A stretch of DNA of 64,000 bases, from the NCBI GenBank assembly GCA_937996685.1, contig CALKUP010000001.1:45322-109321 (forward strand). Reading direction: 5' to 3'. Below, one piece after another: positions 1 to 50,936 of this stretch (position 1 is the stretch's first letter; every line of letters starts with the position of its first letter). Below the pieces are notes generated by a model, which searched no databases, was not told where the DNA came from, and worked only from the letters and a program-made list of their open reading frames with translations. This DNA comes from an uncultured bacterium. GTDB taxonomy: Bacteria > Patescibacteriota > Patescibacteriia > UBA9570 > XYC2-FULL-38-9. The position numbers were made by a program, and so were the translations under genes.

Positions 1-38
1 TGGTAGACTAATTGAGTCTAAAAGTACAGCTATTTTTT

Positions 39-1298
39 ATGAAGCAGAGTCAATTATTTCAACCCCAATTTGCACCTCTTACCGGAACAGCGACTCCAGC
101 AACCGAGCTCGACATCGCGCGCGTGACTCGCGGTCTTGTTGACATGATCCCAAAAGAGGAATTTTTGCGAAAATTACAAACCGGAGAGCGGATGCGGGTG
201 TATATTGGCGCGGACCCAACACGGCCTGATTTGCATATTGGCCATGCGGTGATTTTGCGCGCATTGCGAGGATTGCAAGACCTGGGGCATGAAGTGGTGT
301 TTTTAATTGGTGATTTCACTGGCCGAATTGGCGATCCAACGGGTAAGGATGCGGCTCGGACAGCGCTCAGCACAGAGCAAGTGATGGCGAATGCAGAAAC
401 CTATCGCGAACAAGTCCAGAAAATTATTGATTTTAGTGATTCTGCAAAAACGCCAGCTATTATGGCATTTAACGCCGATTGGCTTGGAAAGTTGTCATTT
501 GAAGATGTGATTCAGCTTGCGAGTCAGTTTACTGTGCAACAAATGCTTGAGCGCGATATGTTCGAAAATCGGATGAAAGACGGGCAACCGATTTATGTCC
601 ACGAATTTTTTTATCCAATCATGCAAGGATATGATTCTGTTGCAATGGATGTTGATGTTGAAGTTGGCGGGACAGATCAATTATTTAATATGCTCGCAGG
701 CCGCAGCTTGCTTAAAACAGCGACAGGGAAAGAAAAAATTGTCTTGACCTTCGAATTGTTACTCGGACTTGATGGCCGCAAAATGAGCAAGTCGTATGAT
801 AATTATGTTGGTATCAATGACGCGCCAAATGAGATGTACGGCAAGTTGATGTCACTCGCAGATGAGTTGATTCCAAGTTATTGGAAATTGTGCACAGACG
901 TATCGGATGCCGAAATTGAGTCTGTAAAAGCTGATTTGGCGAATGGGGTATTACATCCACGTGATGCGAAAATGAATCTCGCGCGAGCGATTGTTGAGAT
1001 CTGCCATGACATTGCGGCGGCACAAGCTGCCCAAGACGCGTTCGTGAGTCAGTTCCAAAAGAAAGAGCGTCCAGATGATATTCCAGAAGTGCGCGTCGCA
1101 GGTGAGTTGAACGCGGTTGATTTGGTGGTAAATGCAGGTTGTGCAAATTCAAAAGGGGAGGCGCGTCGCTTGATTGAACAGGGTGGTGTGAAATTGAACG
1201 ATGAAAAACTGGCTGATATTACAGCAACTGTGTCTGTAAATAGTGGTGATGTATTGCAAGTCGGCAAACGCCGTTTCGCGAAGTTGATTGTTGAATAA
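39..1298 (+). CDS. tyrS: tyrosyl-tRNA synthetase
   Basis: Frame of track ORF 12..1298. Class I HIGH motif (PDLHIGHAV), KMSKS motif and C-terminal S4-like segment (GEARRLIEQGGVKLN). ATG at 39 chosen; a TTG start at 12 is possible. Confidence 0.85.
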   Translation: MKQSQLFQPQFAPLTGTATPATELDIARVTRGLVDMIPKEEFLRKLQTGERMRVYIGADPTRPDLHIGHAVILRALRGLQDLGHEVVFLIGDFTGRIGDPTGKDAARTALSTEQVMANAETYREQVQKIIDFSDSAKTPAIMAFNADWLGKLSFEDVIQLASQFTVQQMLERDMFENRMKDGQPIYVHEFFYPIMQGYDSVAMDVDVEVGGTDQLFNMLAGRSLLKTATGKEKIVLTFELLLGLDGRKMSKSYDNYVGINDAPNEMYGKLMSLADELIPSYWKLCTDVSDAEIESVKADLANGVLHPRDAKMNLARAIVEICHDIAAAQAAQDAFVSQFQKKERPDDIPEVRVAGELNAVDLVVNAGCANSKGEARRLIEQGGVKLNDEKLADITATVSVNSGDVLQVGKRRFAKLIVE

Positions 1299-1413: not shown

Positions 1414-1806
1414 TTACTGCACGTAGAGGACGCAGATCTTGAGCGTCTCGAGCGCTGCCAAGATCTCGTTCAGGTGCAGCTTAGGGTCCCGTCTCCGTGT
1501 CTGGCCCGTTGTTGGGGAGCTGTCCGGGACGTTCTTCCACGGAATGCTCGCGAGATCAAACGAGATCTCGACGTCAAAGACGAGCCTGTCTGTCCACCTG
1601 TCTCCAAGGCGCGTGTGAACTGAACGCCGAGAGCTCATATGTACCGCGATGAGCGCGCGGCCTATGCCTTGAGCGCCGTAGATCGCCTCCTGGACCTGCT
1701 GGTGCGTTACCAGCGGGACCTCAGGGTTGTCCTGAATGGTGAGCCTCAGCGTTTTCGCGAAGTACGGCCTTGCTGGTTTCGTGTCTTGATTTCCGTTCTC
1801 TACCAT
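1414..1806 (-). CDS. hypothetical protein in a moderately GC-rich islet
   Basis: 130-aa ORF with no recognisable motif. It lies in a GC-elevated segment between the tyrS terminator and uvrB. A competing + strand ORF 1639..1884 overlaps it. Confidence 0.3.
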   Translation of the reverse strand: MVENGNQDTKPARPYFAKTLRLTIQDNPEVPLVTHQQVQEAIYGAQGIGRALIAVHMSSRRSVHTRLGDRWTDRLVFDVEISFDLASIPWKNVPDSSPTTGQTRRRDPKLHLNEILAALETLKICVLYVQ

Positions 1807-1916: not shown

Positions 1917-3962
1917 ATGAAATTCGAACTCGCAAGCAATTTTCAACCCTCTGGTGATCAGCCAACAGCGATTAAAACACTGGTGAATGCTGTGCAAACA
2001 GATGAAAAAGACGCTATTTTATTAGGCGTGACCGGTTCTGGAAAAACCTTCACCATGGCGAATGTGATCGCGCAGACTCAAAAACCAACGCTCATCATTT
2101 CACATAACAAAACGCTGGCGGCGCAACTTGCTGGCGAATTTCGAGAATTTTTTCCAAAAAACGCGGTTGAATATTTTGTGAGTTATTACGATTACTATCA
2201 ACCAGAAGCGTATATTGCGCGGAGTGATACCTACATCGAAAAAGAAACCGACATCAACGAAGAGATTGATCGTTTGCGGCACGCGGCTGTGCAATCGATT
2301 TTAACGCGGCGTGACACAATTATTGTCGCGAGTGTGTCATGTATTTATGGGCTCGGCAGTCCAGAGAGTTACAAGGCTGGAAGCAAGGATGTTTCAATTG
2401 GCTCATTGAATCGCGAGCAGTTGCTGATTGCGCTTGTCGACATGCAATATTCTCGCAATGATATTGATTTTCATCGCGGAAGTTTTCGGGTGCGTGGTGA
2501 TATTGTTGAAGTGTTTCAAACATCCAGTGAGCATCGGGCACTGCGGTTTGATTTTTTTGGAAATGACCTTGAAGCAATTTCAGAGTTTGATGTCTTAACT
2601 GGCGAGGTGTTCGGGAATTTTCAAACAGTGACTATTTTTCCAGCGACACTCTATCAAGCAGCAGACGAGCATTTTGCAAAAGCGGTCCAAAATATTCGCG
2701 CTGATATGGAGCGGGAAGTGGCGGCGTTTGAAAAGAAAGGGAAGCTGATTGAAGCGCAGCGCCTGGCGCAACGGACAAAGTTTGATTTGGAGATGATTGA
2801 AAACGTCGGCTATGTGAACGGGATTGAAAATTATTCGCGCTATTTTGATGGTCGCGAGCCAGGGTCGCCACCGTTTACATTAATGGATTATTTTGCGGAT
2901 GATTATTTATTGATTATTGATGAGTCGCACCAAACTATTCCGCAAATTGGTGCAATGTACGGCGGTGATCGCTCACGTAAAGAATCGCTGATTGATCACG
3001 GCTTTCGGGTGAGCGGGGCATACGATAACCGTCCACTTCAGTTTGCAGAATTTGAACAACGCATGCCGCAAACAATTTATGTCTCCGCAACTCCAGGGAA
3101 ATATGAAAAAGCGAAAACAAATGTAGTTGCTGAGCAGTTGATTCGCCCAACCGGAATTACTGAGCCGAAAATTATTGTGAAGCCTGTTGCGACGCAAGTG
3201 AAAGATGTGCTGGAGCGCGTGCGTGAGCGGATTGAAAATGGCCAAAGAGCGTTGATTACAACGCTGACAAAAAAGATGGCCGAAGAGCTGACGGAATATT
3301 TGAATGAGCAAGGCATTGCAGTGCAATATATCCATTCTGATGTTGATAATATGGAGCGTCTCGAGATTTTGCGCGATTTGCGGCTTGGGAAATATGACGT
3401 GTTGATCGGTATTAACTTATTGCGCGAAGGTTTAGACTTGCCTGAAGTGTCTCTTGTGGCAATTTTAGATGCAGACAAAGAAGGGTTTTTGCGTTCAGAA
3501 ACAGCACTGACACAAACCATGGGACGCGCTGCTCGACATTTGGAAGGCACGGCGATTTTGTATGCAGATGTGATTACCGGCTCAATGCAACGCGCGATGG
3601 ATGAAATTAATCGACGGCGCACACTGCAAGAGGAATATAATAAGGAGCACAATATTGTGCCGGCTGCGATTGTCAAAGCGATTCGAGACGACCGATTGTC
3701 TGGAATGAAAAAAGTTGAGGAAGTAGATGATTCGCTTATTGATCCAGAAATTACAGACAAGCTCGCTGAGCCAGAATTTGTGCGCGTGCTTGATGAACTT
3801 CGTGGACGAATGCATCTTGCTGCTGAGAATTTAGAGTTTGAAGAAGCCGCCCGTTTGCGGGATAATTTGGATGAGCTTGAAACAGTCTTTCGACAGAAGT
3901 TTGGTGATTTGAAAAAACTGGCGAAACAAGCCAAGTCCGGCAACAGAAAAAAACGTGGATAA
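1917..3962 (+). CDS. uvrB: excinuclease ABC subunit B
   Basis: Walker A motif GVTGSGKTFTMANVI, helicase motifs and a C-terminal UVR domain (EEAARLRDNLDELE); 681 aa. Confidence 0.9.
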   Translation: MKFELASNFQPSGDQPTAIKTLVNAVQTDEKDAILLGVTGSGKTFTMANVIAQTQKPTLIISHNKTLAAQLAGEFREFFPKNAVEYFVSYYDYYQPEAYIARSDTYIEKETDINEEIDRLRHAAVQSILTRRDTIIVASVSCIYGLGSPESYKAGSKDVSIGSLNREQLLIALVDMQYSRNDIDFHRGSFRVRGDIVEVFQTSSEHRALRFDFFGNDLEAISEFDVLTGEVFGNFQTVTIFPATLYQAADEHFAKAVQNIRADMEREVAAFEKKGKLIEAQRLAQRTKFDLEMIENVGYVNGIENYSRYFDGREPGSPPFTLMDYFADDYLLIIDESHQTIPQIGAMYGGDRSRKESLIDHGFRVSGAYDNRPLQFAEFEQRMPQTIYVSATPGKYEKAKTNVVAEQLIRPTGITEPKIIVKPVATQVKDVLERVRERIENGQRALITTLTKKMAEELTEYLNEQGIAVQYIHSDVDNMERLEILRDLRLGKYDVLIGINLLREGLDLPEVSLVAILDADKEGFLRSETALTQTMGRAARHLEGTAILYADVITGSMQRAMDEINRRRTLQEEYNKEHNIVPAAIVKAIRDDRLSGMKKVEEVDDSLIDPEITDKLAEPEFVRVLDELRGRMHLAAENLEFEEAARLRDNLDELETVFRQKFGDLKKLAKQAKSGNRKKRG

Positions 3963-8500: not shown

Positions 8501-11236
8501 TTACGCGACGTCCGTCAATTCGCCCCAATTTTCTCCAACTTCAGCATCGACTGTTAACGGAACATTGAGTTCAACAGCGTGTTCCATGATTTTTTTAATT
8601 TTCGCAGTCTCTGATTTGACTTTGTCTTTTTTCACTTCAAACACAAGTTCATCGTGCACTTGCAGAATCATTGTTGCGTCAATATCGCCAGCGGCAATGG
8701 CTTTGCCAACTGCGATCATCGCGATTTTCATAATGTCTGCCGCTGTCCCTTGAACAGGCATGTTTACGGCCGCGCGTTCTGCGGCTGCTTTGAGCATCGG
8801 ATTTTTTCCTTGAATATCCGGCAGGTTGCGGCGGTGTCCAAATAATGTTTCGGCGTATCCGGATTGTTCTGTTTCCGCTTTAATGCGTTCGATGTATGTT
8901 TGAATGCCGGTGTGGACGGAAAAGTATTTATCAAGAAACACGCGCGCTTCGTCTCGGGAAATTCCGGAGTCACGCATAATGCCTTGCACGCCCATGCCGT
9001 AGAGAATGCCGAAGTTGATGGCTTTTGCAGCGCGACGCATATCTTTTGTCACCTTGTCCATTGGGACATCGTTTAATTCAGCGGCGGTTTTACTGTGAAT
9101 GTCCTCGCCATTTTGAAAGGCTTCTGTCATCACGGCATCGCCAGACAAGTGGGCAACAACCCGAAGTTCAATTTGTGAGTAATCAAGCGCGATGAGCAAA
9201 TTGCCTTTGTCTGCAATAAAGGCTTTGCGGATTTCACGGCCAAGCTCTGTGCGAATTGGAATGTTCTGCAAGTTTGGGTCTGTTGAGCTGAGGCGTCCGG
9301 TTGCGGCGATTGTTTGGTTAAATGACGTGTGAATGCGTCCTGTTTTTTGATTGATCAATGTCGGAAGTGAGTCGATGTAGGTTGATGTCAGTTTTTTTAA
9401 TTCACGAAATTCAGAAATTTTATCAATAATTGGATGCAGTCCGCGTAATTTTTCAAGTTCTGACGCCGCTGTCGAAAGACCAGTTTTTGTCTTTTTGATT
9501 TTGTCCGTTGAGATTTGCAATTTGTCGAATAAAATTTCGGCTAATTGCGCAGGACTTGCAACGTTAAATTCCGCACCAGCCATATCTTGAATTTCTCGAT
9601 TCACAATCGCAATACGTTTGTGTAGTTTTTTACTCATGTCGTGCAAAAATGGCACGTCAATTTTTACTCCCGCTTCTTCAACAGATACCAGGGTTCTCAG
9701 TGTTTCCATTTCAATGTCGAAGAATAATGTTTCATAGCCTTCGCTTGTGATACGTGGAGCAAATCGGTTATACAGGCGCAATGAAAAATCAGCATCTTCA
9801 GCGGCGTACCAGGCAACTTTTTCTACTGCGACATCTGCCATCGATAATTGGTTTTTGCCTTTGCCGATGAGCTCCTCAATGGATTGCATGGTGTAATCAA
9901 ATTCGGCAAACGCCAACGCGTCTAGTGAGTGTCCGCGTCCGCCACCGCTCAAAATGTATGATGCAAGCATGGTGTCGAAAGCGACTCCAGCAACAGCAAC
10001 GCCCGCGCCATGTAAAATTTCAACATCGTATTTAATGTTGTGGCCAGTTTTTTGAATCGCCGGATTTTCTAGAATCGCTTGAATATCTTTCGGAACACTA
10101 ACGGCGCCATTTTTTGTCATGCATGGAATATAGATGCCGTGGCCTTCTTCCCAGGCAATACTAATGCCAACAAGTTCTGCGGCCATTGCATCAACGCCGG
10201 TTGTTTCGGTGTCGATTGCTATCATTGATTGTTTTTCAATGATAGCGCAGACGTCTGCAATGTCTTCAGGAGTTTGAATAAGGCGATAGACAGAATCTTT
10301 ATCGACTGGTTTTTCGTTCACCGCCTCTTCCTCAATGCCGATCGCAAACAAACCTTCTTTTTTTGTAAACCCTGGAAGTGTTTCAATTGTTTTTAGTAAT
10401 GAATGAAATTCCCATGCCCGAAACAAATCGCGAATTTTTGCTTCGTTGTACTGTCCGATTTTTGCAGCACTTGCATCAAACTCAACCGGCGCGTCGCACA
10501 CAATGGTTGCGAGTTCACGCGACATTTCGGCTTGGTCTTGCTGTCCTTCAAGTGCCTTGCGATTCCGTCCGGTAATCTCTTCCAAGTGAGCGTAAATATT
10601 TTCAATTGTGCCAAATGCTTTGAGTAGTTCTGTCGCGCCTTTTTCGCCAATGCCTTTCACGCCTGGAATATTATCAGAGGTATCACCACGAAGTCCTTTG
10701 TATTCGATGACTTGTTCCGGTGTAAATTGATATGCCGCTTCAACAGACGCGCGATCAAATAATTCCATTTCCTTAACCCCTTTTTTCAACCGCAATACTT
10801 TTGTATGCGCGTCGACAAGCTGCAACAAATCCATGTCACCGGTCAAAATAATTGCTTCTTGTTTTTTTGTTTTGGTCGCTTGTTTTGCGATGGTTCCAAT
10901 AAGATCGTCTGCTTCAAATCCAGAGAGCTTGAATACTGGAAAGCCAAATGCTGCAACAACGTCTTCAACGAGCGGGAACTGCGTAATCAAGTCAGCGTCA
11001 GTTTCAGAGCGATTCGCCTTATAGTCTTTGAATTGTTTGTGACGAAATGTTGGGCCTTTTGAGTCAAAACAGACAACGACCTCGTCTGGTTTCATGTCCT
11101 TGAGGGCGTTGATTGTCATTAATAAAAAGCCGTAGACCGCTCCAACCGGTGTTCCGTCAGAAGAGGTAAGTGGAGGGAGGGCGTGATATGCACGGTGAAT
11201 GAGCGCGTGAGCGTCGATAATAAGGAGTTTTTTCAT
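8501..11236 (-). CDS. polA: DNA polymerase I
   Basis: 911 aa. It has an N-terminal 5'-3' exonuclease, a 3'-5' exo region and a C-terminal family A polymerase with motifs RRAAKAINFGILYGM and QVHDELVFE. Confidence 0.9.
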   Translation of the reverse strand: MKKLLIIDAHALIHRAYHALPPLTSSDGTPVGAVYGFLLMTINALKDMKPDEVVVCFDSKGPTFRHKQFKDYKANRSETDADLITQFPLVEDVVAAFGFPVFKLSGFEADDLIGTIAKQATKTKKQEAIILTGDMDLLQLVDAHTKVLRLKKGVKEMELFDRASVEAAYQFTPEQVIEYKGLRGDTSDNIPGVKGIGEKGATELLKAFGTIENIYAHLEEITGRNRKALEGQQDQAEMSRELATIVCDAPVEFDASAAKIGQYNEAKIRDLFRAWEFHSLLKTIETLPGFTKKEGLFAIGIEEEAVNEKPVDKDSVYRLIQTPEDIADVCAIIEKQSMIAIDTETTGVDAMAAELVGISIAWEEGHGIYIPCMTKNGAVSVPKDIQAILENPAIQKTGHNIKYDVEILHGAGVAVAGVAFDTMLASYILSGGGRGHSLDALAFAEFDYTMQSIEELIGKGKNQLSMADVAVEKVAWYAAEDADFSLRLYNRFAPRITSEGYETLFFDIEMETLRTLVSVEEAGVKIDVPFLHDMSKKLHKRIAIVNREIQDMAGAEFNVASPAQLAEILFDKLQISTDKIKKTKTGLSTAASELEKLRGLHPIIDKISEFRELKKLTSTYIDSLPTLINQKTGRIHTSFNQTIAATGRLSSTDPNLQNIPIRTELGREIRKAFIADKGNLLIALDYSQIELRVVAHLSGDAVMTEAFQNGEDIHSKTAAELNDVPMDKVTKDMRRAAKAINFGILYGMGVQGIMRDSGISRDEARVFLDKYFSVHTGIQTYIERIKAETEQSGYAETLFGHRRNLPDIQGKNPMLKAAAERAAVNMPVQGTAADIMKIAMIAVGKAIAAGDIDATMILQVHDELVFEVKKDKVKSETAKIKKIMEHAVELNVPLTVDAEVGENWGELTDVA

Positions 11237-14348: not shown

Positions 14349-14468
14349 AAAAAAATATCCTTCTAGTGCGAGAAGCGCCTGAAGGATGTGTCGGGTCTAT
14401 TGTGCAATACTGTTTCGTGGCTGTCAATTGGTTGACGCTGGCCCGTGATCCATCTATTCTTGCAGATA

Positions 14469-16381
14469 TGTTGAATCATTCTTTTGTTCGTCGTGCGTCA
14501 TTTTTTCTTTCGGTGGTGTTTTTGATATCCGCGATTGCGCGCGTCGGGCTTTTTTGGAAAACAGAAATAGCGAATCAAGTCTTGGTTGGAGCATTAGTGC
14601 TTGGTTTATGCGCGGCGTTAATTGTCGGAAGAAAGCGTCAGATCACGATTCACATGCTACCAACGCTCTACGGCTTTGCGGTTCTTGAATTAGTGAACAC
14701 AGCTCGTGTGTTATGGCCGAGTCTGTTGCCACAAAAGCAGCTTATTGGGATGTTGCTTGGAACAACAGAGTCTGCTGGTATGTTGTCATTTCTTGGGGTG
14801 ACTGCGCTTGTGCTCGGAGTGTCGTACACACTGTCTGATGTTTTTATGCAGGTGTGTACAGGTGCGACGCCTCGCCGGTGGCTGACTGTGTTTCAGCGGC
14901 GCCCATTCTTTTTTGCTTTGCTCTTTTCGTTTGTGCTCACGAGTGTGTATAGCATTGACCTTGCGCTTCGACACGCAGCGTTTACAGCAACGGTCTATGA
15001 CTTCGGGATTTTTGATCAAGCGCTCTATATGCTATCGCGCGGTGCAACGGGTTCAACAACGCGTCAGTTTACAAACATCTTTTTTGACCACCAGCATTTT
15101 TCTTTAGTGCTGCTCACACCACTGTATTGGATCGGACGGGGACTACATGGATACACGCTGCAGATTCTAACGCCATTTTTGTTGATTTTTTTTCCATCTG
15201 TGGTGACTTTTTATATTGCGCAAACATTCGCAGCTCTGCGTGGGCTGGATATTAAAAAACCGTATTGGGTTATTCCGACGACGAGTCTGTTGTTGTGGTT
15301 GCATCCATATACGCAATCCGCGATCGGATTTTATTTTCATGAAAAATACCTCATGCCATTGGTATTCACTGGCTTTTTATATACAGTCGTCTCTTTTGTG
15401 CATGCGCCAACCTGGCGCTGGTTCGCTGGAATGTGCACATTCGCGCTTCTCTGGTCTGGGATAAAAGAAGATCAGTGGTTGTTTGTTTTTGTGTGTGTAT
15501 TGCAGTGCGGTGTTGCGACGTGGTTGCATGCAGGCGTTCGATCAGCCGTGAACCGTTTCCGTGTGCTAGGGGTCTCTGCAGTTGCTGTTGTGCCGCTTGT
15601 GTACGCCGGTTTTTTGAGTTGGTTTCACACCCAATCAACCAATGGCCAATATGTGCATTTGTATTCCCATCTTGGTCTTGCGGCTCGGCAGTGTTTTGTT
15701 GAATTGAATCCAGCAGCGGCGTTGCAGACATTAAAGCTCATGGATGATGTAAACATCTATCAATATCAACATTTATTGACGCTTGATCTATTCGGCGTAA
15801 TTGTCTTTCCGTTGAGTGTGCTCGGCAATTACGCGGAGCGGTTGCTTGCGGAAAGCCCTTCATTAAAAAATCCAATTTTTCATTATGGCGTTGATGTGCC
15901 AATCTATTCTGCTGTTGGGTTTGTGTTGCTTCTGTTGTTATTGCAAAAACATCTGCCCGCTCTATCACGCCGTGTCCATTTTTTTGGTATCACACTCGCA
16001 CTTGTTGGTTTTTCAGCGCTGCTTGGCTGGAACGCTATTTATTATCTCGTGCCAACAATGCAACGCGATGTTGTTCGATTTGTTGAAACTCGGTCAGAGC
16101 GAGTATCTGTTGCAGAGACAGCAAGGCGTATTCCTGCTGACGCATCGCTTGTGGTGTCTGATGGTTGGGCGACGCATTTCACGGCCCGCACGTCTGTTGC
16201 GCAATGGCCAGAAGTCTTGCAATTACCAGAAGGCACGCCTGGCAAAAATGCTCTCGCTACTTTTGATTATTGGCTTTTGCGTAGAAGTGACGCAACGACC
16301 GCGGCGCAAGTGCAGTTGCTGGTCGATTCAGGATATCAAATTATCGAAGAAACTGAATTTGCTTTTCTTGTGCAGCGATAG
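14469..16381 (+). CDS. DUF2079-family polytopic membrane protein, GT-C-like
   Basis: Many TM segments and the motif YDFGIFDQALYMLSRG that I associate with DUF2079. The start is uncertain; the track ORF begins at GTG 14366 and the first ATG in frame is at 14469. Confidence 0.6.
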
Positions 16382-16526: not shown

Positions 16527-16858
16527 AATATCGTACGCAGTATTGTAATAAAAAAACGAGCCTGAGCAATCGTCACGTTGTGGGTCTAGTAGGCTATGAG
16601 CCAATAGACGAACGCAATGATTACGCAGGCCAAGAAAGCGATGGTCTTTTTGTACTCCATCGCTTCAATGACGACGAGTCCAATAAAATTCAGAGCGAAC
16701 CACCCACACTGCTCAAGATCCTCAGAGGTCATGGGATTCTCCGTGTTGCTGCAAAGTGCGTCTGAAGGCATTTTCAGTTGGCGCGACTGTAGCAAAATCA
16801 GGCTAATTGTCAACTTCTTTTGTGAGCCGGATCTTGTGTCGTGTGGTATTATTTTTAT

Positions 16859-17398
16859 ATGAAATACGTCGCACTGCTCCGCGGAATTAACGTTGGAGGA
16901 AATAACAAGGTCGAGATGAAGAAATTGAAAGCACTTTTTGAGTCTCTTGGTTTTGATGATGTTGTGACCTATATCAATTCTGGCAATGTTGTATTTGGGT
17001 CAAAAAAGGTTAGTCCAAAAACCCTGGCGAAAAAAATTGAAACAGCGATTGAAAATGAATTTGGGTTTACGGTTGCTGTGCTCGTGCGTGACGAAAAAAA
17101 TATCGCAACGGTTGCAAAGAAGATTCCGGCGGCATGGGTGAATAATGCTGAAATGCGAACTGATGTATTATTTTTATGGAGCGAGATTGATAACCCAAAG
17201 ATTGTGAAAGAGTTTGAGGTGAACGCAGGTATCGAACATCTGAAATATATTGATGGGGCAGTGGTGTGGAATATCAAAAAGAAGGATTACAATAAAAGTC
17301 GCGTACCGAAAATCATGTTGCGGAAAGATGTCTATAAAAACATCACCATTCGAAATGTGAATACTCTGCGAAAGTTGAATGATTTGCTGGCGAAGTAA
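16859..17398 (+). CDS. DUF1697-family protein
   Basis: MKYVALLRGINVGGNNKVEMKKLKALFESLGFDDVVTYINSGNVVF matches the DUF1697 hallmark. Start is at the internal ATG of track ORF 16841..17398. Confidence 0.75.
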   Translation: MKYVALLRGINVGGNNKVEMKKLKALFESLGFDDVVTYINSGNVVFGSKKVSPKTLAKKIETAIENEFGFTVAVLVRDEKNIATVAKKIPAAWVNNAEMRTDVLFLWSEIDNPKIVKEFEVNAGIEHLKYIDGAVVWNIKKKDYNKSRVPKIMLRKDVYKNITIRNVNTLRKLNDLLAK

Positions 17399-18723: not shown

Positions 18724-19728
18724 TTATGAAATTTTTGTTGACATATCGCGATACAGCGCAATCATGCCAATAGCGCGAGCGATGTTGTGATCACGACGAG
18801 AAGTATACCGTGTGTCGTCCCACCCAAAATAATTATCGTTGACAATATCAGTAGCAAAGCGAGCTGCGAGCTCAAGGGTGATCATTTTAACAGCTTGAGG
18901 GATGAGTTTCTGTTCTTCTTCTGACAACTGAATTGACTCTAATATTCCTTCAAGCGCCGCAGTGTAATGCTCGAGATGAAATGTATTATTCGGGTCGTCT
19001 TCTTGCCCACCGCACCATGAGCGCAATGCATCGCCAATATCAACCAGCGGTGTATGCACCATCGTTGTATCAAAGTCGATCATGCAGGTTTCAGTGTCAT
19101 CAGTTGCAAATAAAATATTGGAAATTTTTGGATCACCATGCACAACGCGGGTTGGAAGATTTTTTGGGAGAAGATTTTTTTCGAGTTCAGGTGCGATGGT
19201 TTGTAATAATTCCCACTGACTGTCATGTACAAGAGCGCGTGCCTGTGCTTCAACCGCTCGCCATTCATCTAGAATGTCTGCTGTTTGATGCATTTTAAAA
19301 GAGCTGGTAAGTTCACCTGCGTCAAAATTTTTCATTCCGGCAAGAAACTGCCCCAGCGTTTCCCCGGCACGCCGTGCAATGTCAGCAGACGGAACAACGT
19401 GATATGTTTCACCTGGAATCGCGACCATAAGCTGCCAAAGATATTCTTGCGCGTCGATAAAAAATGGCACCTCTTGTGAAGAAGGAACGAGTGTAATGGT
19501 TGGAATACCTTCTGAGCGCAAATGTGTAACAACGCGATTAGCGTCGATAATCGTTTCCTTGCCAAAAATTTTTGCCATGCGTTGCAAGATGTATGTGCTG
19601 TCTTGTGCATGAACCACAAATGACCGATTGATTAAACTCAGCGGAATCGGTTCAATGGATTGAATGTTTTGAATACCAAATTCTGGGAGAATGGTTTGCT
19701 GGAGGTAGTCTTGAAGTGTTTGATCCAT
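18724..19728 (-). CDS. phosphotransferase-family protein, APH/choline-kinase-like
   Basis: Brenner motif VVHGDPKISNILF and the metal-binding MIDFDT. Internal ATG start (MDQTLQDY); the track ORF extends to a GTG at 19812. Confidence 0.65.
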   Translation of the reverse strand: MDQTLQDYLQQTILPEFGIQNIQSIEPIPLSLINRSFVVHAQDSTYILQRMAKIFGKETIIDANRVVTHLRSEGIPTITLVPSSQEVPFFIDAQEYLWQLMVAIPGETYHVVPSADIARRAGETLGQFLAGMKNFDAGELTSSFKMHQTADILDEWRAVEAQARALVHDSQWELLQTIAPELEKNLLPKNLPTRVVHGDPKISNILFATDDTETCMIDFDTTMVHTPLVDIGDALRSWCGGQEDDPNNTFHLEHYTAALEGILESIQLSEEEQKLIPQAVKMITLELAARFATDIVNDNYFGWDDTRYTSRRDHNIARAIGMIALYRDMSTKIS

Positions 19729-19821
19729 AGAACTACAGCATACTGGATTTTTGCTATTTACCAAAATAAGAAAAATGGTGCCACGTCTTTTGAAAAACGC
19801 AGCACCGAGCACAAGAGAGGG

Positions 19822-20475
19822 CTACAACCGGAATTGGTAGCCGGCGTAGACGATGGGGGTGTCGAGCAGGTTCACATGTGCGTAGAACCCGCCGATGGAG
19901 ATTCGCGGTCCAACGCGCGGGCCGTAGGTGTTCTCCCAGAAGACGCCAAGTTGCGGGCCTTTCTTCCACGGTCCAGCAGCAGCATACCCTTCGTAGTAGT
20001 AGCTGACCGGACGATCCTCGCTGAATCCCAGCGAGTGGATGGTCAGTGCACTGACTCGTCCGCCGGCTGCCGACAAGAGCGCGCTGTACCCAATCTGCGG
20101 CTGCACGCCCGTGCCAGGAAAGAAGGCAATCACGCCAATATTCAGGTTCTGCCGAACCGTGAGGCTTTTACCTTCCCATGACCAGTGGATGCCAGCGCGC
20201 CCAGCAGTCCAGCCGCTGATGCTTTGGTCATCGCTCCAGTGGACGTCGATGCCGGACTGGGCGAAGACACTCACCCCGAGCCAGTGGCAGTCGCAGGCGC
20301 CGAAGTGCCTGTTTGGTCCGATCGCGCTGACGGTCGTCAGCTTCACCCGGCCGAGTTCCGGAGAGGCTGCGAGTTGCACGTCTCCGAAGGTGTTGTGCGC
20401 AATCGCGGTGTGTTCAGGCTCCTGTCCAGCAAAAGCGCTGGAAAGGGCGGCGGCGAGCAAAAGAGCAGGGAACAT
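19822..20475 (-). CDS. secreted beta-strand-rich hypothetical protein in a high-GC islet, outer-membrane beta-barrel-like
   Basis: Cleavable signal peptide MFPALLLAAALSSAFA. Strands alternate hydrophobic and polar residues. The C-terminus YAGYQFRL is aromatic-rich. The segment is strongly GC-rich and several spurious ORFs cross it in other frames. Confidence 0.4.
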   Translation of the reverse strand: MFPALLLAAALSSAFAGQEPEHTAIAHNTFGDVQLAASPELGRVKLTTVSAIGPNRHFGACDCHWLGVSVFAQSGIDVHWSDDQSISGWTAGRAGIHWSWEGKSLTVRQNLNIGVIAFFPGTGVQPQIGYSALLSAAGGRVSALTIHSLGFSEDRPVSYYYEGYAAAGPWKKGPQLGVFWENTYGPRVGPRISIGGFYAHVNLLDTPIVYAGYQFRL

Positions 20476-20704
20476 GAGGACTCCAACGGGGTCGTGTTCG
20501 TCGCGTCATGCGAACGAACAGAGTAATCTGCGCCTGAATTCAATAAAATAAAAGCCGTTAGAACGTGTTGCGTTGACCTGTACCAGAAAAAGAGGGTGTT
20601 TTGTTGTGGTTTTGCGCAATCAGCTATCCACTGACTTGATTTTTATAGGTATTTTTGTTATCATAAAAAAGATGACAGAATAATTTTGTGAAAAACAATA
20701 GAAA

Positions 20705-21886
20705 ATGAGCCCTCATTCATTGTCAGAAAAACTTGTACAGCTCGGTTTAACGCATAATCAAGCGGCGGTTTACGAAGCGTTGCTTCAACATGGTCAATCA
20801 AAAGCGGCGGTTCTTATTAAAGAAACGGGATTGCATCGCAATATTGTTTATGAAGCACTGGATGCGCTTGAAAAGCGGCTGTTGATTTTTAAAACAACTC
20901 AAGGCGGTGTGGCGCTGTTTCAGTTGTCTGACCCTGATTCACTGCTTACTGAGGCAAATCAACGATTATCGCTCGCTCAAGCTATTGTCACCGAAGTGAA
21001 TATTTCACGTAGTCGTTCAAATCATGAAGTGAAGTTATATGAAGGGATGAGTGGGCTGCAGGCGCATAGACAATCGCTGTTGTCTGATCTTGAAGAGTCA
21101 AAAGAGGAACATTATATTATTGCAGGCTCACATAAACAGAAAGAGTTATACGATCTTGTGTTTCAGGGGTATGACCAACAGCGCATACAGAAACAATTGC
21201 CAGCGAAGATTTTGTTTTCGAATACGGACATGGCATATGCTGAGGTGGTCGGAGGTCTTGAATATACCGCTGCGAAAATTTTGCCGCAGCACATGCAAGC
21301 GCCTGTCATGATTGATATTTGGAAAGATCACGTCGCATTTATGACGAATGATGAAGAGCCGTTTGTTGTTTCGATTCGTAATGCGCAGATGTTTGAGTCA
21401 TTTCGTGAATATTTTCAAACGCTATGGCAACAAGATGTTGAAACGATTACCGGTTTGTCCGTCATTCAGACGTCGTTTTTGCGTTGGATGTATGAAATGA
21501 AGCCAGGGGAGGAGTATATGGTGATTGGTGCAAATTACGGCGAAGAAGAATCAGCGAATATCATGAGACCGTGGTTCGTGAAATACCACAAAAAACGCTT
21601 GCAGTATGGCGTGCGGGCTCGGTTGTTGACGTTGTCTGGCAGCATACAAGCAGTGGTTGATGAAATTGTTGAAGCAAACGATCCTGAAATGAAGCTGACT
21701 GAGCTGCGTGTGATGCAAAAAGAATTAACATCACCAATGCAAATAAACATCTATCCAACTGCTGTGCGATTTATTTATTGGGACGTTGAAGAAAAAGCTG
21801 TTGCAATTGATATACGACGAAAAGATATTCGTGATGCAATGGTGCAATATTTTACAGCGCTCTGGAATGCGAGCGACAAAGTATAG
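20705..21886 (+). CDS. TrmB-like winged-helix transcriptional regulator
   Basis: N-terminal HTH LGLTHNQAAVYEALLQHGQSKAAVLIKETGLHRNIVYEALDALEKRLL is typical of the TrmB family; 393 aa. Confidence 0.5.
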   Translation: MSPHSLSEKLVQLGLTHNQAAVYEALLQHGQSKAAVLIKETGLHRNIVYEALDALEKRLLIFKTTQGGVALFQLSDPDSLLTEANQRLSLAQAIVTEVNISRSRSNHEVKLYEGMSGLQAHRQSLLSDLEESKEEHYIIAGSHKQKELYDLVFQGYDQQRIQKQLPAKILFSNTDMAYAEVVGGLEYTAAKILPQHMQAPVMIDIWKDHVAFMTNDEEPFVVSIRNAQMFESFREYFQTLWQQDVETITGLSVIQTSFLRWMYEMKPGEEYMVIGANYGEEESANIMRPWFVKYHKKRLQYGVRARLLTLSGSIQAVVDEIVEANDPEMKLTELRVMQKELTSPMQINIYPTAVRFIYWDVEEKAVAIDIRRKDIRDAMVQYFTALWNASDKV

Positions 21887-21897
21887 GATGTTTCGTG

Positions 21898-21980
21898 TAC
21901 CGTGGGAGAGACTCGAACTCTCACAACTGTGAAGTTACTGGCACCTGAAGCCAGCGCGTCTACCATTCCGCCACCACGGC
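21898..21980 (-). tRNA. tRNA-Leu (anticodon CAG), long variable arm, CCA not encoded
   Basis: Reverse complement folds as acceptor GCCGTGG/CCACGGT, anticodon stem CTGGC/GCCAG with loop TTCAGGT, and T-loop GAGTTCGAGTCTC. Coordinates are accurate to about 2 nt. Confidence 0.75.
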
Positions 21981-22172: not shown

Positions 22173-23441
22173 ATGCCGGTCACAGCAGTTGTCGGAGCGC
22201 AATACGGAGATGAAGGGAAGGGTCGCATCGTCGACTACCTCGCCCAGCACGCGGACATGATCATCCGGTACCAGGGCGGCGACAACGCCGGCCACACCGT
22301 GATCAACCAGTACGGCAAGTTCGCTCTGCACATGGTGCCGTCGGGTGTGTTCAACCCCGTCGCCAAGTGCATCGTTGGCGCGGGCTGCGTCGTCAACCCT
22401 GAGAACCTGCTCGCCGAGCTTGCGCAGATCGAAGCTGCGGGTGTGCTGACGGGCAACCTGATGCTGAGCGAGCGCGCTCACATCGTCATGCCGTACCACC
22501 CGATGATCGACGGGCTCCAGGAGAGCAACCGGTCGGGCAAGGAGGTCATCGGCACGACCAAGCGCGGGATCGGACCGACCTACGCTGACAAGGCGGCTCG
22601 TTGGGGCCTGCGCCTCGGCGACCTGCTCCACCCTGACTGGTTCCGTGAGCGCCTCAGCAACGTGCTTCCGCACAAGAACCGCGAGATCACGGAGTTCGGC
22701 GGCCAGCCGTTCGAGATGAGCGAGTTGCTCGCCACCGCCGAGGTTTGGCGCGCCAAGCTCGGCCACCGCATCGTCGACACCATGCCGATCGTGCAGGCGG
22801 CGGTCAGCCAGGACCTCAACGTGTTGCTCGAAGGCCAGCTCGGCGTGATGCGCGACATCGACTGGGGTATCTACCCGTACGTCACGTCGTCCAACCCGAT
22901 CTCGGGCGCGGCGTCGGCGGGTGCGGGCCTGCCGCCCCAGGCGATCAAGAACGTGCTCGGCGTGGTCAAGGCCTACGCCACTGCGGTCGGCGCTGGTCCG
23001 TTCCCGGTTGAGCTCACCGACGAGGTGGGTGAGCGCCTGTGCGACATCGGCAAGGAATACGGCGCGACGACTGGTCGTAAGCGTCGCTGCGGCTGGTTTG
23101 ATGCCGTTGCCTTGCGCTACGCCGCGTGGCTCAACGGCTTCACCAGCCTCGCGATCACCAAGCTCGACGTGCTCGACACCTTCGAGGAGATCAAGGTCTG
23201 CATCGGCTACCGCTGGCGCGACCGCGTTTTCACGCACGTGCCTGATGCCGCGATCTACGGTGAGTGCGAACCGGTGTACGAGACGTGGCCGGGCTGGAAC
23301 GAGTCCACCTGCGACGTCCGCACCTGGGACGACCTGCCCAAGCCCGCGCGCCTCTATCTGCGCCGCTTGAGCCAGCTCGTGGGCGTGCGCATCCAGTTCA
23401 TTTCGGTGGGCCCCGAGCGCGAACAGCTCATTGTGATGTGA
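22173..23441 (+). CDS. purA: adenylosuccinate synthetase, high-GC and likely horizontally acquired
   Basis: Motifs [32 protein letters not shown] and [16 protein letters not shown] sits 6 nt after ggaggg. Codon third positions are overwhelmingly G/C, unlike the neighbouring genes. Confidence 0.85.
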
Positions 23442-24087: not shown

Positions 24088-26996
<2,909 letters not shown>

Positions 26997-27209
26997 ATGG
27001 TCTTGACGTATAGTTGATACTATACCGCGTGCAAGACGCACGCTCTACGTTTCAGTTTGTATAAAAGCAAACAAGAGAAGAAACAACGCAGAAATATTTT
27101 GATCTATTCAGTTAAGTAACGTTTTATCGCAAGAGAGGTGATGCTCTCCTGTGATGAAAGCGGTTAGAGTCACCAGAGTTGTGATGCGAAACAGATTCGC
27201 GTAACAATT

Positions 27210-27314
27210 CTGGTGGTTCTAGCGACACGGAAACACCTGTTCCCATTCCGAACACAGCAGTTAAGCGTGTCAGCGCCGATGATAGCCTTCGGGTGAAAGT
27301 AGGTCACCGCCAGT
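27210..27314 (+). rRNA. rrf: 5S ribosomal RNA
   Basis: tctggtggttctagcgacacgg...gttcccattccgaacacagcagttaagc...gtaggtcaccgccag is typical 5S. Ends are approximate. Confidence 0.8.
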
Positions 27315-27326
27315 TTATCGATCTAA

Positions 27327-31579: not shown

Positions 31580-31705
31580 AGTATATATTATTGTAACACA
31601 CTGTACAGCACTTTTTCCGTACACACAATATTGTTTTCTTTGGTAAATCCCGCTAGGATGAATAAACACACTGAATCAATAGTGTGCTCATTCCAAGGAC
31701 AAAGC

Positions 31706-32398
31706 ATGACAAATGAATTGCCACAGTGGGACCCGAGCGTGACGGTGTTTTCGCGTTCGCAGCGCCCGACTCGTGACGAGGTTGAGGCAATGGCCCAGAT
31801 GATGGGCCTGGGCTTTCAGAGCTCTCGCTTGATGCAGCATTGGGCTGGCGACACGAGCGTTTCCGGCATCGTCGAGTTGATGCGGATGACGTTGTGGGCG
31901 GGTCTTCGATATGGCTGGGTCGCGACGACCTGGGACGACAGTGTCCCGACGGCGGTTTCTGTCTGGATTCCGCCGGGCGTGCGTGTGCCTGCGTGGTGGC
32001 AGGCGAGCTTGCTTCCGAGCATGGTCCGACAGTTTGGACTCACTCAAGCCTGCTTGATCCTCCGAGACCTCATCGTTTTAGACGGTGTGCATTCCGCGGC
32101 TGATCGGGAGATCGGAGAGCATGCCTATCTGCTCACGATTGTCACGCATCCGGGCTATCGACGCCAAGGACACTTCGCGCGCCTGATGATGCCGGTGGTG
32201 GACTGGTGCGATCACGTGGGCTGCGCTGCGTACCTCGAGTCCGATGACACCGGCGAGTCTGATCCTGATAAATGGAACAGATATCGTTACAGGAACTTCG
32301 GTTTTCGGTTGTACGGCAACGGAATTCCAGTTAGCGCAGAAGCACTGCGCTTGCTCTACCCGGCAATGATTCGCCCGAAACGCCCACAGCATTCCTGA
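31706..32398 (+). CDS. GNAT-family N-acetyltransferase, GC-rich and likely horizontally acquired
   Basis: Acetyl-CoA binding motif A LLTIVTHPGYRRQGHFARLM. The segment is clearly GC-rich relative to flanks and abuts tRNA-Ser. Confidence 0.6.
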   Translation: MTNELPQWDPSVTVFSRSQRPTRDEVEAMAQMMGLGFQSSRLMQHWAGDTSVSGIVELMRMTLWAGLRYGWVATTWDDSVPTAVSVWIPPGVRVPAWWQASLLPSMVRQFGLTQACLILRDLIVLDGVHSAADREIGEHAYLLTIVTHPGYRRQGHFARLMMPVVDWCDHVGCAAYLESDDTGESDPDKWNRYRYRNFGFRLYGNGIPVSAEALRLLYPAMIRPKRPQHS

Positions 32399-37239: not shown

Positions 37240-37539
37240 TCAGTCCTTGAACTCGACCCAGCCAACGCCAGTGTTGGCGTTGTAGTAGGCGGTATAGCCC
37301 GGCTCGGGCACAACACGCTCCGCCGTCATCCAGCCGGTGCCCTCGAACAAAAACATGCCGGGCGAACCAGACTCGTACGCCAGCTCCATGATGCGGAGGG
37401 AAGCAGGACCGGCCGAGGTCATGAAAACCACTGCGCCGGGGGTAGGTGCGTAGGCTTCGAGAAAGCCGAACGCGACTCCCTGAGCCGGGGGGTTGTGGAG
37501 ACTTGAGACAATGTTGAGTCGTGTCAATGGGCACCTCAT
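37240..37539 (-). CDS. hypothetical protein in a GC-rich islet
   Basis: ORF in a strongly GC-rich approximately 400-bp segment between the HI0933 gene and proS. No motif was found and the start is uncertain (track ORF 37240..37602). Confidence 0.25.
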   Translation of the reverse strand: MRCPLTRLNIVSSLHNPPAQGVAFGFLEAYAPTPGAVVFMTSAGPASLRIMELAYESGSPGMFLFEGTGWMTAERVVPEPGYTAYYNANTGVGWVEFKD

Positions 37540-37658
37540 TACGGTTTGTTGTGATCGTCTGGCACCGTAAAACCAGACCGCTGAAAATACCATATTTTCC
37601 ATAAAAGGTCAATGCATTTGGGTTGAACTCTGGCGAAAACGTGGTAGTATGAATTTCT

Positions 37659-48414: not shown

Positions 48415-48792
48415 ATGAAGAAACTCGCACGATTATTATCATCATTTGGTTTCACAGCGATGGGCTTGCTTGCTGCAAATCCCGTTTCTGCGCAATTGAA
48501 GACCAGCTTTTCAGGTTCTGAAGTTCCAGCACTTGGAACTCGAACTCCACAAGCGATCATCGGACAAGTAATCAACGTAGCGCTTGGTTTCTTGGCATTC
48601 GTTGCTGTTATCCTTATCCTATATGGTGGTTTTTTGTGGATGACTGCTGCCGGAAATGAAGATCGCGTTGAACAAGCGAAGAAATTATTAACAGCCGCTA
48701 TTATCGGTTTGGTAATTATTTTAGCTGCTTGGGGAATTTCCCTGTACGCTATTGGTACTCTTGCAACCGCTACTGGAACATCTGTCAAATAA
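48415..48792 (+). CDS. TrbC/VirB2-like pilin-family small membrane protein, paralog 4
   Basis: Strong SD. Signal peptide ...ANPVSA-QLK. Core is FLWMTAAGNEDRVEQAKKLLTAAIIGLVIILAAWGI. Confidence 0.7.
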   Translation: MKKLARLLSSFGFTAMGLLAANPVSAQLKTSFSGSEVPALGTRTPQAIIGQVINVALGFLAFVAVILILYGGFLWMTAAGNEDRVEQAKKLLTAAIIGLVIILAAWGISLYAIGTLATATGTSVK

Positions 48793-48810
48793 AAAACAGA
48801 CCAGTCAAAA

Positions 48811-48840
48811 AGGCGTCCGTTTATCGGGCGTCTTTTTTTT
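48811..48840 (+). terminator. probable terminator after pilin paralog 4
   Basis: Imperfect hairpin ggcgtccg...cgggcgtc followed by T8. Confidence 0.45.
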
Positions 48841-48869
48841 ATTCCGATTGTTTGGTATTCTCTACAAGA

Positions 48870-50936
48870 ATGAAAGCTATACATCGTTTACGATTTTTTT
48901 TGTTACAAGACTTTTTGTCTGTCCCGCGCCTGCTATGGTTCTGGATGATTGGAGTCTGCTGTGTTGTGATTGGAATCTGCGTCGTATCGTATACGCAATT
49001 TCAATATGCAGGCCTTGATCTTGGAATTTACAATCAAGTTCTATGGAATACAGCGCATGGTCGTTTATTTGAGTTTACATTTAATGAATCATCATATCTT
49101 GTTGATCACCGTGAATGGTTGTTGATTTTGTTGACGCCGATCTACTGGGTTGTAAATCAACCGCTTGTGTTGGTGGTAATTCAGTCAGTGATTGTGAACA
49201 GCGTTGTGATTCCGATGTATTTGCTTGCGCGAACAGTCTTTGACGGAATGGTGCCGCATCCAAAAAAAGCTGCGCTATTTGTTGCGGCAGCGGTATTATT
49301 GCATCCAACAATCTTAAATATGCAGCTGTTTGAGTTTCATGTCCTTGCGCTCACAGCACCGCTCGCTGTCTGGTGGTGGTATGGCATTGTGACGCAGCGC
49401 CGCTTTCGTTGGGTCTTTTTTATCATCCTGCTACTCATGCGTGAAGATGTTGCTATTACAACTGCTGGCGTCGGTGTGCTGCTGTATATAACAGAACAAA
49501 AACGTTGGAAGGAAGCGGCGGTGATTGTGATCGCGAGTGTTATGTGGTTTGCAGCGATGGTTTGGGCTGGAGGGTATTTTTCCGTTGAAGATAATCCATT
49601 ATTTTTCTCGTTGTATTCATGGATGGGAACCACGCCACTCAACGTGCTTCAGTACATGGCGCTGCATCCGCTGGCTGTGTTGCGACATGTGTTATCGGCT
49701 GGGAATATATTTTTGTTTTTATTATTTTTAATGAGCACGGCCTTTTTGCCGCTCCTTGCATTTCGTCGTTTGTTTCCGGCACTGCTCGGTTTGAGTGTCT
49801 ATTTTTTCATGGGCAGTATTAAAATTGGCATGGATATTTTTCTGTATCATTACGGAGTATTGATTACAATTTGGACATGTATCGCCGCGCTCTATGGATA
49901 CAGAAGATTATTTGATGATACAAAAAAATGGAAAGTGCCATTTTTTACACAGAAGGACATGCATTATTTTGCGGCGCCAATCGTGATGGTCGTATTGTTT
50001 TCAACCTGGGTATTTTTTGGGCTTCATTGGGCATTGCTTGATATTGTAAAACTGCATTCAGAAGATCGCAGTGGTTTGCGGGCGGTGATGCAAGATATTC
50101 CAGCAGACGCTTCGGTAATGGCGTCTGATCGAGTGTATCCATATCTTTCAAGTCGACAATTTTTGTATTCAACAAAATATATCAATAGCGGGTTAAAGCA
50201 CTATTCATCTCTTGCGTATCAATTTCGCTCCTTTGATTGGCTGGTGATGACTGATGAAGTGGCGCGGATGCAAAACGGTAGTTCAATTCAAACAAAAGCG
50301 AACTCGGTTAAGCGCTTGCGATACCAGTTGCAAAAAAACGCGCTTGTGCCAGTCCGCCTTTTTGAGCAAGGCGTGTTGTATGGACCGGCTGCTGCAGCAC
50401 CTGCTCCGTCAGAGCCTGTGCGGTCTGCCGTTGGTTTTGTGTCGCAGGTTCATGCAAATCAACGGGTGCATCCGACGGCACGCTTGGATGGATATACGTA
50501 TGATGATGCAACGCGTCAATTTTCTCTCCAACTGACACGTATGAACGATGATCAGGCGATAGCGTTTCGGGCTGATCATGAAGATGATCAAGAGCTCTTT
50601 GTTCGGGTGTTGTGGCACACGCGTTATGGTCTGCCAGCATCAACGCAATATCGATTGCTCGGTAGCGCAACAGATCCAATGTATCTCTGGGGGAATGACG
50701 AGTCGCGGGTTATGCAGCTGCCATGGATTTTTCCAGAAGGAGCAACGGATGTTCGGTTAGAATTTGGTAGTTTGTATTTACCGCCGCAGCACCTTGCTGT
50801 CACTCAAACAATGCCGCTTATGCGAAAGCCATTGCCGCTTGAATATACTGACGTTACGCCAATAGTGGCTGTTGATGAGCGTTGTAAAATCACCCCTACT
50901 CAAGAGCTTGGTTCTTGTAGCGTAAACACGAAATAG
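48870..50936 (+). CDS. DUF2079-family polytopic membrane protein, GT-C-like, paralog of the 14469..16381 gene
   Basis: Same motif class (AGLDLGIYNQVLWNTAHGRLFE) and multi-TM architecture as the gene at 14469..16381. Start is at the internal ATG (MKAIHRL). Confidence 0.6.
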   Translation: MKAIHRLRFFLLQDFLSVPRLLWFWMIGVCCVVIGICVVSYTQFQYAGLDLGIYNQVLWNTAHGRLFEFTFNESSYLVDHREWLLILLTPIYWVVNQPLVLVVIQSVIVNSVVIPMYLLARTVFDGMVPHPKKAALFVAAAVLLHPTILNMQLFEFHVLALTAPLAVWWWYGIVTQRRFRWVFFIILLLMREDVAITTAGVGVLLYITEQKRWKEAAVIVIASVMWFAAMVWAGGYFSVEDNPLFFSLYSWMGTTPLNVLQYMALHPLAVLRHVLSAGNIFLFLLFLMSTAFLPLLAFRRLFPALLGLSVYFFMGSIKIGMDIFLYHYGVLITIWTCIAALYGYRRLFDDTKKWKVPFFTQKDMHYFAAPIVMVVLFSTWVFFGLHWALLDIVKLHSEDRSGLRAVMQDIPADASVMASDRVYPYLSSRQFLYSTKYINSGLKHYSSLAYQFRSFDWLVMTDEVARMQNGSSIQTKANSVKRLRYQLQKNALVPVRLFEQGVLYGPAAAAPAPSEPVRSAVGFVSQVHANQRVHPTARLDGYTYDDATRQFSLQLTRMNDDQAIAFRADHEDDQELFVRVLWHTRYGLPASTQYRLLGSATDPMYLWGNDESRVMQLPWIFPEGATDVRLEFGSLYLPPQHLAVTQTMPLMRKPLPLEYTDVTPIVAVDERCKITPTQELGSCSVNTK

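Follow-up and report, generated by a model that had tools for sequence, protein, structure and literature searches.

An orphan family of predicted 12-stranded outer-membrane-type barrel proteins at a variable, GC-rich locus of Kerfeldbacteria-like Patescibacteria

The barrel gene and its chromosome

The window analyzed here is a stretch of 64,000 nucleotides from an uncultured bacterium (contig CALKUP010000001.1), and the gene under study is an open reading frame (ORF) on its minus strand at 19822..20475. This ORF starts with ATG and encodes a protein of 217 aa, the stop codon being included in the span. A sequence-only reading had placed an ORF for a secreted, barrel-like protein here, within strongly GC-rich DNA carrying overlapping artefactual ORFs, and both observations were borne out. 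The region ~19815-20520 has 60-65% GC compared to ~36-45% in its flanks, with edges that coincide with the gene and a 45-nt leader, and the ORF list includes three overlapping ORFs of 113-173 aa each on the plus strand.

The length of an ORF is no proof by itself, as GC-rich DNA often yields long chance ORFs. We regard the gene as real because of its homologues and its codon-position GC. In the minus-strand frame GC1/2/3 are.61/.505/.734, with a lone stop at the terminus, and the coding pattern was seen in no other frame; in the antisense frame that has few stops, GC peaks at codon position 1. The homologues match the minus-strand frame only, along its full length. The plus-strand ORFs speak for a chance ORF, or for a true gene on the other strand, but these readings are refuted by the codon-position GC (GC3 > GC1 > GC2 with a single stop in the minus-strand frame only), by the homologues and their full-length alignment, and by a ribosome-binding site and terminator suited to the minus strand. 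We consider them scarcely credible, and the plus-strand ORFs over 19822-20475 to be artefacts.

Judged by its sequence, the gene is intact and looks expressed. Its translation opens with a predicted signal peptide (20428..20475, minus strand), MFPALLLAAALSSAFA, ending in A-F-A and followed by G, and closes with IVYAGYQFRL. The signal peptide was recognized from the translation and from the alignment of relatives; the N-termini of the full-length relatives are hydrophobic, align with that of the window protein, and mostly finish in small-residue (A-x-A-like) sites. A Shine-Dalgarno-like GGAG could be read off the minus strand at 20481..20484, 5 nt 5' of the ATG. On the same strand an intrinsic terminator is predicted at 19767..19806 (hairpin 19777-19806), with a 13-bp stem and then a U-run, 16 nt past the stop; its folding energy is -20.4 kcal/mol (z -4.6), and none of 200 shuffled sequences folded equally well. 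The next ORF on the minus strand, an APH-type kinase (18724-19812), has a 5' extension that takes in this terminator. In a close relative of the window, contig L001, the kinase orthologue starts at the site equivalent to the window ATG at 19728. Therefore, the kinase most likely begins at ATG 19728 and its ORF is probably over-extended.

The surroundings are those of an ordinary chromosome, with genes for TyrRS, UvrB, an MFS transporter, holA, PolA, an LTD/OB-fold protein, DUF2079, and the APH kinase, followed by a TrmB-like regulator, PurA, 23S and 5S rRNA, ProRS, FemAB, CofD, XseA, and LCP. The top named matches of UvrB all belonged to Candidatus Kerfeldbacteria, the 'Patescibacteria group', or Candidatus Doudnabacteria, and by these matches the host chromosome is that of a Kerfeldbacteria-like member of the Patescibacteria (candidate phyla radiation, CPR). 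Two of these genes, FemAB (57647-58720) and LCP (62960-63778), are characteristic of monoderm walls. Patescibacteria have been described as monoderm (PMC11665869) and placed in a monoderm clade whose porins were lost (bioRxiv 10.1101/2021.05.31.446380). The earlier premise of a monoderm-type genome thus holds, given the UvrB lineage matches and both of these papers.

Contig L001 (JBIIKE010000001.1) carries a 'Bdellovibrionales' label, which we considered as a hint of a diderm host and rejected. L001 is syntenic with the window, being colinear from PolA through 5S rRNA, and the two UvrB proteins share a 90% cluster, with an identity of at least 90%; every named relative belongs to the Patescibacteria. 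The title of L001 probably reflects taxonomic mislabeling or an error in binning.

The protein family and its predicted fold

A word-indexed search of 5.8 billion proteins found only the window protein itself, so that an exhaustive HMMER scan of 1.84 billion representatives was needed to reveal the family. The scan returned four full-length relatives (P0002-P0005; 210-239 aa, 29-35% identity, E 5e-20 to 8e-9) and a fragment, P0007, with E up to 7e-4. A profile search then gained P0009 and P0010 for a total of seven relatives, beyond which none was found among the 1.84 billion representatives; no other family matched. Neither the window protein nor any family member matched Pfam or NCBIfam at E<=1. 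Sequence and profile searches of the PDB returned only noise (PsbY, a VHH, and protein G) and no porin. A scan of GTDB genomes with the window protein and a scan of JGI metagenomes with the family alignment found no relative, and the contig index held no exact match for the window protein or for its TrmB-like neighbor. P0002 is annotated as Candidatus Kerfeldbacteria, and those relatives whose context could be read all lie on Kerfeldbacteria-like or CPR-like contigs, none on a non-CPR contig. On these sequence searches the family is a very small orphan, limited to this CPR lineage as far as sampled.

The eight sequences align end to end with no frameshift or truncation in the window protein. 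Thirteen columns are invariant, and these fall in three groups: YYYEG, GxFWEN..G...GPR, and P....G. The YYYEG motif (19987..20001, minus strand) spans residues 159-163 on predicted strand 8, in which Y161 and G163 are invariant and residue 162 is Glu in seven of the eight sequences and Asp in the fragment P0007. The GxFWEN..G...GPR motif (19903..19947, minus strand; residues 177-191, strands 9-10) has invariant G177, F179, E181, N182, G185, G189, P190, and R191. The window protein carries a seven-residue insertion, FGACDCH, relative to the others. Its last strand and C-terminus, IVYAGYQFRL (19825..19854, minus strand), resemble a β-signal with G(-6), F(-3), and L(-1), and all seven relatives end in G-x-x-H/R-x-W. 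In two close pairs of relatives the ratio of nonsynonymous to synonymous substitution (dN/dS) is 0.27 and 0.20, which indicates purifying selection on the family; with values of 0.02-0.035 for the adjacent regulator, selection on the barrel gene is much looser.

AlphaFold2 supplied with the eight-sequence alignment gave a model with a mean predicted local distance difference test score (pLDDT) of 85.9 and a predicted template modeling (TM) score of 0.76, the five models ranging from 83.8 to 85.9 in pLDDT. In the model, 12 antiparallel strands with short connections occupy residues 25-216 of 217, and the signal peptide is the sole helix. The fold matches, with their values as listed, were the BrkA β-domain (15.8), PcoB (15.2), Hbp (14.8), VhGalP (14.3), KdgM (13.3), AIDA-I (12.7), EspP and intimin (12.6), Tsx (11.7), NalP (11.3), and FapF (11.1). 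Foldseek searches of the PDB and of the viral models in BFVD likewise returned chiefly porins and outer membrane protein (OMP) barrels, small phage-encoded ones included. Averaged over the family, the Kyte-Doolittle value is +1.39 for one strand face and -0.58 for the other, polar and Gly-rich face, a statistic biased by the picking of the more hydrophobic face strand by strand. The polar face holds most of the conserved residues, including E162, E181, and R191 on the neighboring strands 8-10. The model and fold matches support an exported, β-rich, outer-membrane-type transmembrane barrel of 12 strands, and with it the secreted barrel-like protein proposed earlier.

The earlier assignment to the OmpW/PagL class did not stand. 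The window protein shares with these small outer membrane β-barrels a signal peptide and a composition rich in Gly and aromatic residues, but there is no profile match to OmpW (PF03922), and the model has 12 strands rather than 8. It likewise lacks a profile match to the lipid A deacylase PagL (PF09411) and the 8-stranded barrel with a His-Ser-Glu site that marks that enzyme. Closer in architecture are KdgM and NanC (PF06178; PDB 4pr7, 8xua, 2wjr), single-chain, 12-stranded monomeric barrels of ~200-215 residues that start right after the signal peptide and have short loops and a charged lumen. There is, however, no PF06178 match at E<=1, and the structural alignments show 5-11% identity; KdgM resides in the outer membrane of Proteobacteria and needs the β-barrel assembly machinery (BAM), whereas the window protein comes from a monoderm CPR lineage. 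PcoB/CopB (PDB 7pge) differs in that the window protein has no CopB Pfam match, no neighboring copper-resistance genes, and no Met/His-rich N-terminal region. From the model we infer that in size and architecture the protein is nearest to barrels of the KdgM/NanC or PcoB type, while in sequence it is a member of neither.

The β-domains of autotransporters, intimin, and invasin (BrkA 3qq2, Hbp 3aeh, AIDA-I 4mee, EspP, NalP, intimin 5g26) were compared by fold. Unlike autotransporters (PF03797), the window protein has no passenger domain, no lumen-filling linker helix, and no Pfam match. The small porin or OMP barrels of phages (BFVD, uncultured Caudovirales; ~185 aa) matched with Foldseek E 1e-5 and TM 0.44-0.54, and are similarly encoded by genomes that have no outer membrane of their own. 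They serve as a precedent for barrels produced for the membrane of a different cell. Their identity to the window protein is nonetheless 9-12%, and they are made inside a diderm host that supplies BAM, whereas a CPR episymbiont is a separate cell. With BAM-dependent outer membrane barrels in general the model shares an even number of strands (12), their antiparallel order, and alternating hydrophobic faces.

A TrmB-like neighbor, a variable slot, and an anomalous composition

The neighboring gene on the plus strand, at 20705..21886, encodes a TrmB-like regulator that matches Pfam TrmB (PF01978) at 2.9e-09, above the gathering score. Its NCBIfam and PDB matches are confined to residues 3-84, the N-terminal winged helix-turn-helix, and the C-terminal sugar-binding domain of archaeal TrmB/TrmBL1 was not matched in the regulator. 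The C-terminal part of these TrmB-like proteins is an internally repeated domain of unknown family whose copy number varies, the regulator of the window and its orthologues in L001, L002, and L010 having lengths of 393, 526, 534, and 674 aa. The orthologues are 45-58% identical to one another. Those in L001, L002, L004, L005, L007, and L010, at 45-50% identity, are neighbors of the barrel gene or of an analogue.

In every contig that shows the upstream side, the barrel gene is divergent from the TrmB-like orthologue. The two genes are directly adjacent in the window, L004, L005, and L007, and one gene intervenes in L002. This last contig, from a Kerfeldbacteria metagenome-assembled genome (MAG), encodes P0002 between holA/TrmB and PolA/LTD, matching the window neighborhood, and UvrB is also nearby; an IS1595-family transposase gene (L002 10833-11624) lies directly 3' of the barrel homologue. 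In L003 two genes separate the barrel gene from a 5' partial ORF, a candidate for the TrmB-like gene.

The divergent intergenic region holds a 25-nt element, TGTCATCTTTTTTATGATAACAAAA in minus-strand reading, at 20653..20677, overlapping sites that resemble promoters of the TrmB-like gene. The pattern TGTCAT-N7-ATGATA(ACAAAA) was seen in eight loci, a single time in each and invariably within the divergent region, just 5' of the TrmB-like gene (window 20653-20677; L001 9938; L002 8878; L003 422, where TGTCAT-N7-ATGATA is present upstream of the partial ORF; L004 7414; L005 868; L007 805; L010 16538). A second palindrome, TGTCA-N12-TGACA, overlaps in L002, L003, L005, and L010 with a TTGACA hexamer that points toward the barrel gene or its analogue. 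Both patterns are likely operators of the regulator, and their sharing of the divergent region makes co-regulation of the barrel gene by the TrmB-like protein a reasonable proposal. The GC-rich leader of the window gene contains a palindrome of matching geometry, TGTTCGT-N12-ACGAACA (20495..20520, minus strand), whose fold is not distinctive relative to shuffled sequences (z -1.6) and which is possibly an operator or a 5' hairpin.

The place between the APH kinase and TrmB-like genes is variable. L001 and the window share 73-85% DNA identity in the flanking genes, and the barrel gene is missing from L001, which has at this position 1.2 kb without similarity to the 0.9 kb of the window. The L001 segment encodes, on the same strand as the barrel gene, a 220-aa protein with a signal peptide (9104-9766, minus strand; 60% GC). 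In L010, also a Kerfeldbacteria MAG, the ORF divergent from the TrmB-like gene (16765-17343, plus strand) encodes a Gly- and aromatic-rich protein of 192 aa with a signal peptide and the ending GGAKITF; its GC3 is.74 compared to.31 in the adjoining regulator gene. A 264-aa ORF with a signal peptide and the same Gly- and aromatic-rich character was found in L005 three genes downstream (2694-3488, plus strand). Kinship of these three ORFs with the barrel family was rejected by BLASTP, tblastn, and hhalign. By their sequence features they may represent further barrel families in a cassette-like slot.

The high GC of the window gene recurs in its homologues. The GC3 of family members compared to that of their neighbors is.73 versus ~.40 in the window,.88 versus ~.6 in L002,.67 versus ~.42 in L003,.83 versus ~.43 in L004,.93 versus ~.6 in L005, and.80 versus ~.4 in L007. 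With ~30% identity, kept position, and high GC3 in all copies, these genes cannot all be recent arrivals, and a single old arrival should have ameliorated. An assembly chimera was rejected, as the same gene-bounded GC pattern was present in independent assemblies from different samples. Translational selection is unlikely to be the cause, since the gene for the highly expressed ribosomal protein S20 (L002) is at background GC3. No convincing direct or inverted repeats of the kind left by mobile elements flank the GC island. The apparent dS of the barrel gene is 0.46-0.60 compared to 1.1-2.3 for the adjacent regulator by the Nei-Gojobori method, which is unreliable at such codon bias; the low value is compatible with synonymous sites being constrained or biased, or with lineages having exchanged the gene more recently. 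From these comparisons the GC anomaly is an old, gene-specific trait, for which the candidate causes are biased gene conversion, at a surface-protein locus prone to recombination, or lateral exchange repeated within the lineage.

Similar islands occur elsewhere in the window. PurA (22176-23441, plus strand), directly after tRNA-Leu(CAG) (21897-21980, minus strand), has 66% GC and a GC3 of.88 in a genome of ~45% GC, and the PurA of L001 (11816-13120) has ~69% GC in the same place. Other gene-sized islands of 58-65% GC lie between housekeeping genes at 1414-1806 (minus strand), 37240-37602 (minus strand), and 31631-32398 (plus strand), containing a 130-aa ORF, a 120-aa ORF, and a GNAT acetyltransferase gene, respectively. 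The TyrRS-UvrB gap in L008 and L010 holds toxin-antitoxin genes instead of a GC-rich ORF.

Several further features of the chromosome were noted. No 16S rRNA gene lies upstream of the 23S (24090-27007) and 5S (27209-27315) genes, so the rRNA operon is unlinked, and the layout is the same in L001. Two DUF2079 genes were noted: one, for a membrane protein, at 14366-16381 (plus strand), which L001 lacks at the equivalent position, and one at 48729-50936. By synteny of window positions 1-1298 with L008 and L009, dnaA, dnaN, and dciA are ~8 kb upstream of TyrRS in relatives, so that the window begins near the replication origin. The GC skew is positive over nearly the whole window.

Interpretation of the barrel family

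The reading we favor, at somewhat better than even probability, is that of an intact gene of an orphan CPR family encoding an exported 12-stranded outer-membrane-type barrel, probably controlled by its TrmB-like neighbor, and neither in decay nor recently imported from a diderm. A protein of ~200 aa would be exported by the Sec pathway and would fold as a single-chain, 12-stranded antiparallel barrel with short loops, a hydrophobic exterior, and a polar, Gly-rich lumen bearing the conserved charge cluster of E162, E181, and R191. The TrmB-like regulator would probably control the barrel gene through the operator-like palindromes in their common intergenic region. The barrel itself could be embedded as a small pore or channel in some lipid layer beyond the cytoplasmic membrane of the symbiont. 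Because no outer membrane is attributed to the lineage, contact with a host cell would be the most plausible location; the options are the host membrane at the episymbiotic contact, an unrecognized outer layer of the cell itself, and a place outside any membrane as a soluble or wall-bound barrel.

A number of points weigh against this interpretation. The structure is a prediction from a shallow alignment of eight sequences, and AlphaFold2 run on the single sequence gave a useless model (pLDDT 33). The face statistic carries the bias described above, and the inward or outward orientation of residues is a presumed one. The window protein ends in Leu where its relatives have a terminal Trp, its signal peptide has no charged or basic n-region, and no sigma-70-like promoter was detected for the gene on the minus strand. 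Patescibacteria are described as monoderm bacteria that lost porins, and the gene lists of the window and fetched loci (~190 kb, not whole genomes) include no BamA/Omp85, POTRA, Lpt, Lol, or TolC. Taken with the monoderm literature, the lack of BAM, Lpt, and Lol in these ~190 kb means that neither a membrane nor a machinery for assembling such a barrel is known here. Both the pore function and the control by the TrmB-like protein are things we infer.

Recent horizontal gain from a high-GC diderm, with the gene as a functionless and possibly decaying passenger, was implied by the sequence-only reading. The sharp edges of the GC island, the replacement of the gene by a different ORF in the close relative L001, and the other GC-rich islands of the window, PurA among them, are in its favor. 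The search of 1.84 billion representatives nevertheless found only the seven relatives, and of those whose context could be read none is on a non-CPR contig. Their occurrence at ~30% identity in the same TrmB-adjacent slot of distant CPR contigs points to long residence, and one recent import does not explain a GC3 (.67-.93) that is high against its own background in every copy. Decay is contradicted by the full-length, intact frame and by the family dN/dS of 0.2-0.27; no frameshift relative to the homologues was found. We therefore consider recent import improbable, and the suggestion of a non-functional passenger or decaying fragment is not upheld.

A soluble secreted or wall-associated barrel, such as a ligand binder similar to nitrobindin or lipocalin, would need no outer membrane, which suits the host lineage. 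The exterior hydrophobicity is moderate (+1.39), and the conserved polar and charged residues of the lumen could bind a ligand. This alternative is at odds with the modeled 12 long strands, the dyad alternation of hydrophobic residues, and the presumed outward-facing aromatic residues, as well as with the β-signal-like C-terminus and its W-ending in all seven relatives, and we judge it unlikely. The conservation of this C-terminal aromatic residue suggests that an assembly machine recognizes it, as would be expected if the lineage had its own outer lipid layer, a diderm-like envelope retained or re-invented, with this protein as its porin. Different Gly- and aromatic-rich ORFs with signal peptides (190-264 aa, one with the ending KITF) in the same neighborhood in relatives agree with this, but the gene lists without components for outer membrane assembly, the FemAB and LCP genes, and the literature on monoderm CPR bacteria leave such a layer only a slim chance. 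It is also conceivable, though quite unlikely, that the protein is an effector porin, exported into the outer membrane of the host and assembled by host BAM via its β-signal, by which the CPR cell, being metabolically dependent, would draw nutrients. The slot would then be a cassette locus, a reading that fits because unrelated secreted ORFs occupy the same slot in L001 and L010, and GC-rich barrel genes would be swapped at this TrmB-adjacent cassette as hosts change.

The family is new in sequence while its predicted fold is a known one; the phylum is unexpected for it, and its locus is variable and compositionally odd. The long-kept, gene-specific excess of GC3, common to PurA and the small islands, is a separate puzzle of composition in reduced genomes. 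The loss of porins in Patescibacteria is part of current scenarios for the transition from diderm to monoderm bacteria. A conserved family of outer-membrane-type barrels in this group may mean that some CPR lineages have an unrecognized lipid layer, that barrels can be made without BAM, or that a pore is delivered to the host. The last of these, if true, would give a concrete and testable molecular means of studying the way in which episymbionts take resources from their hosts.

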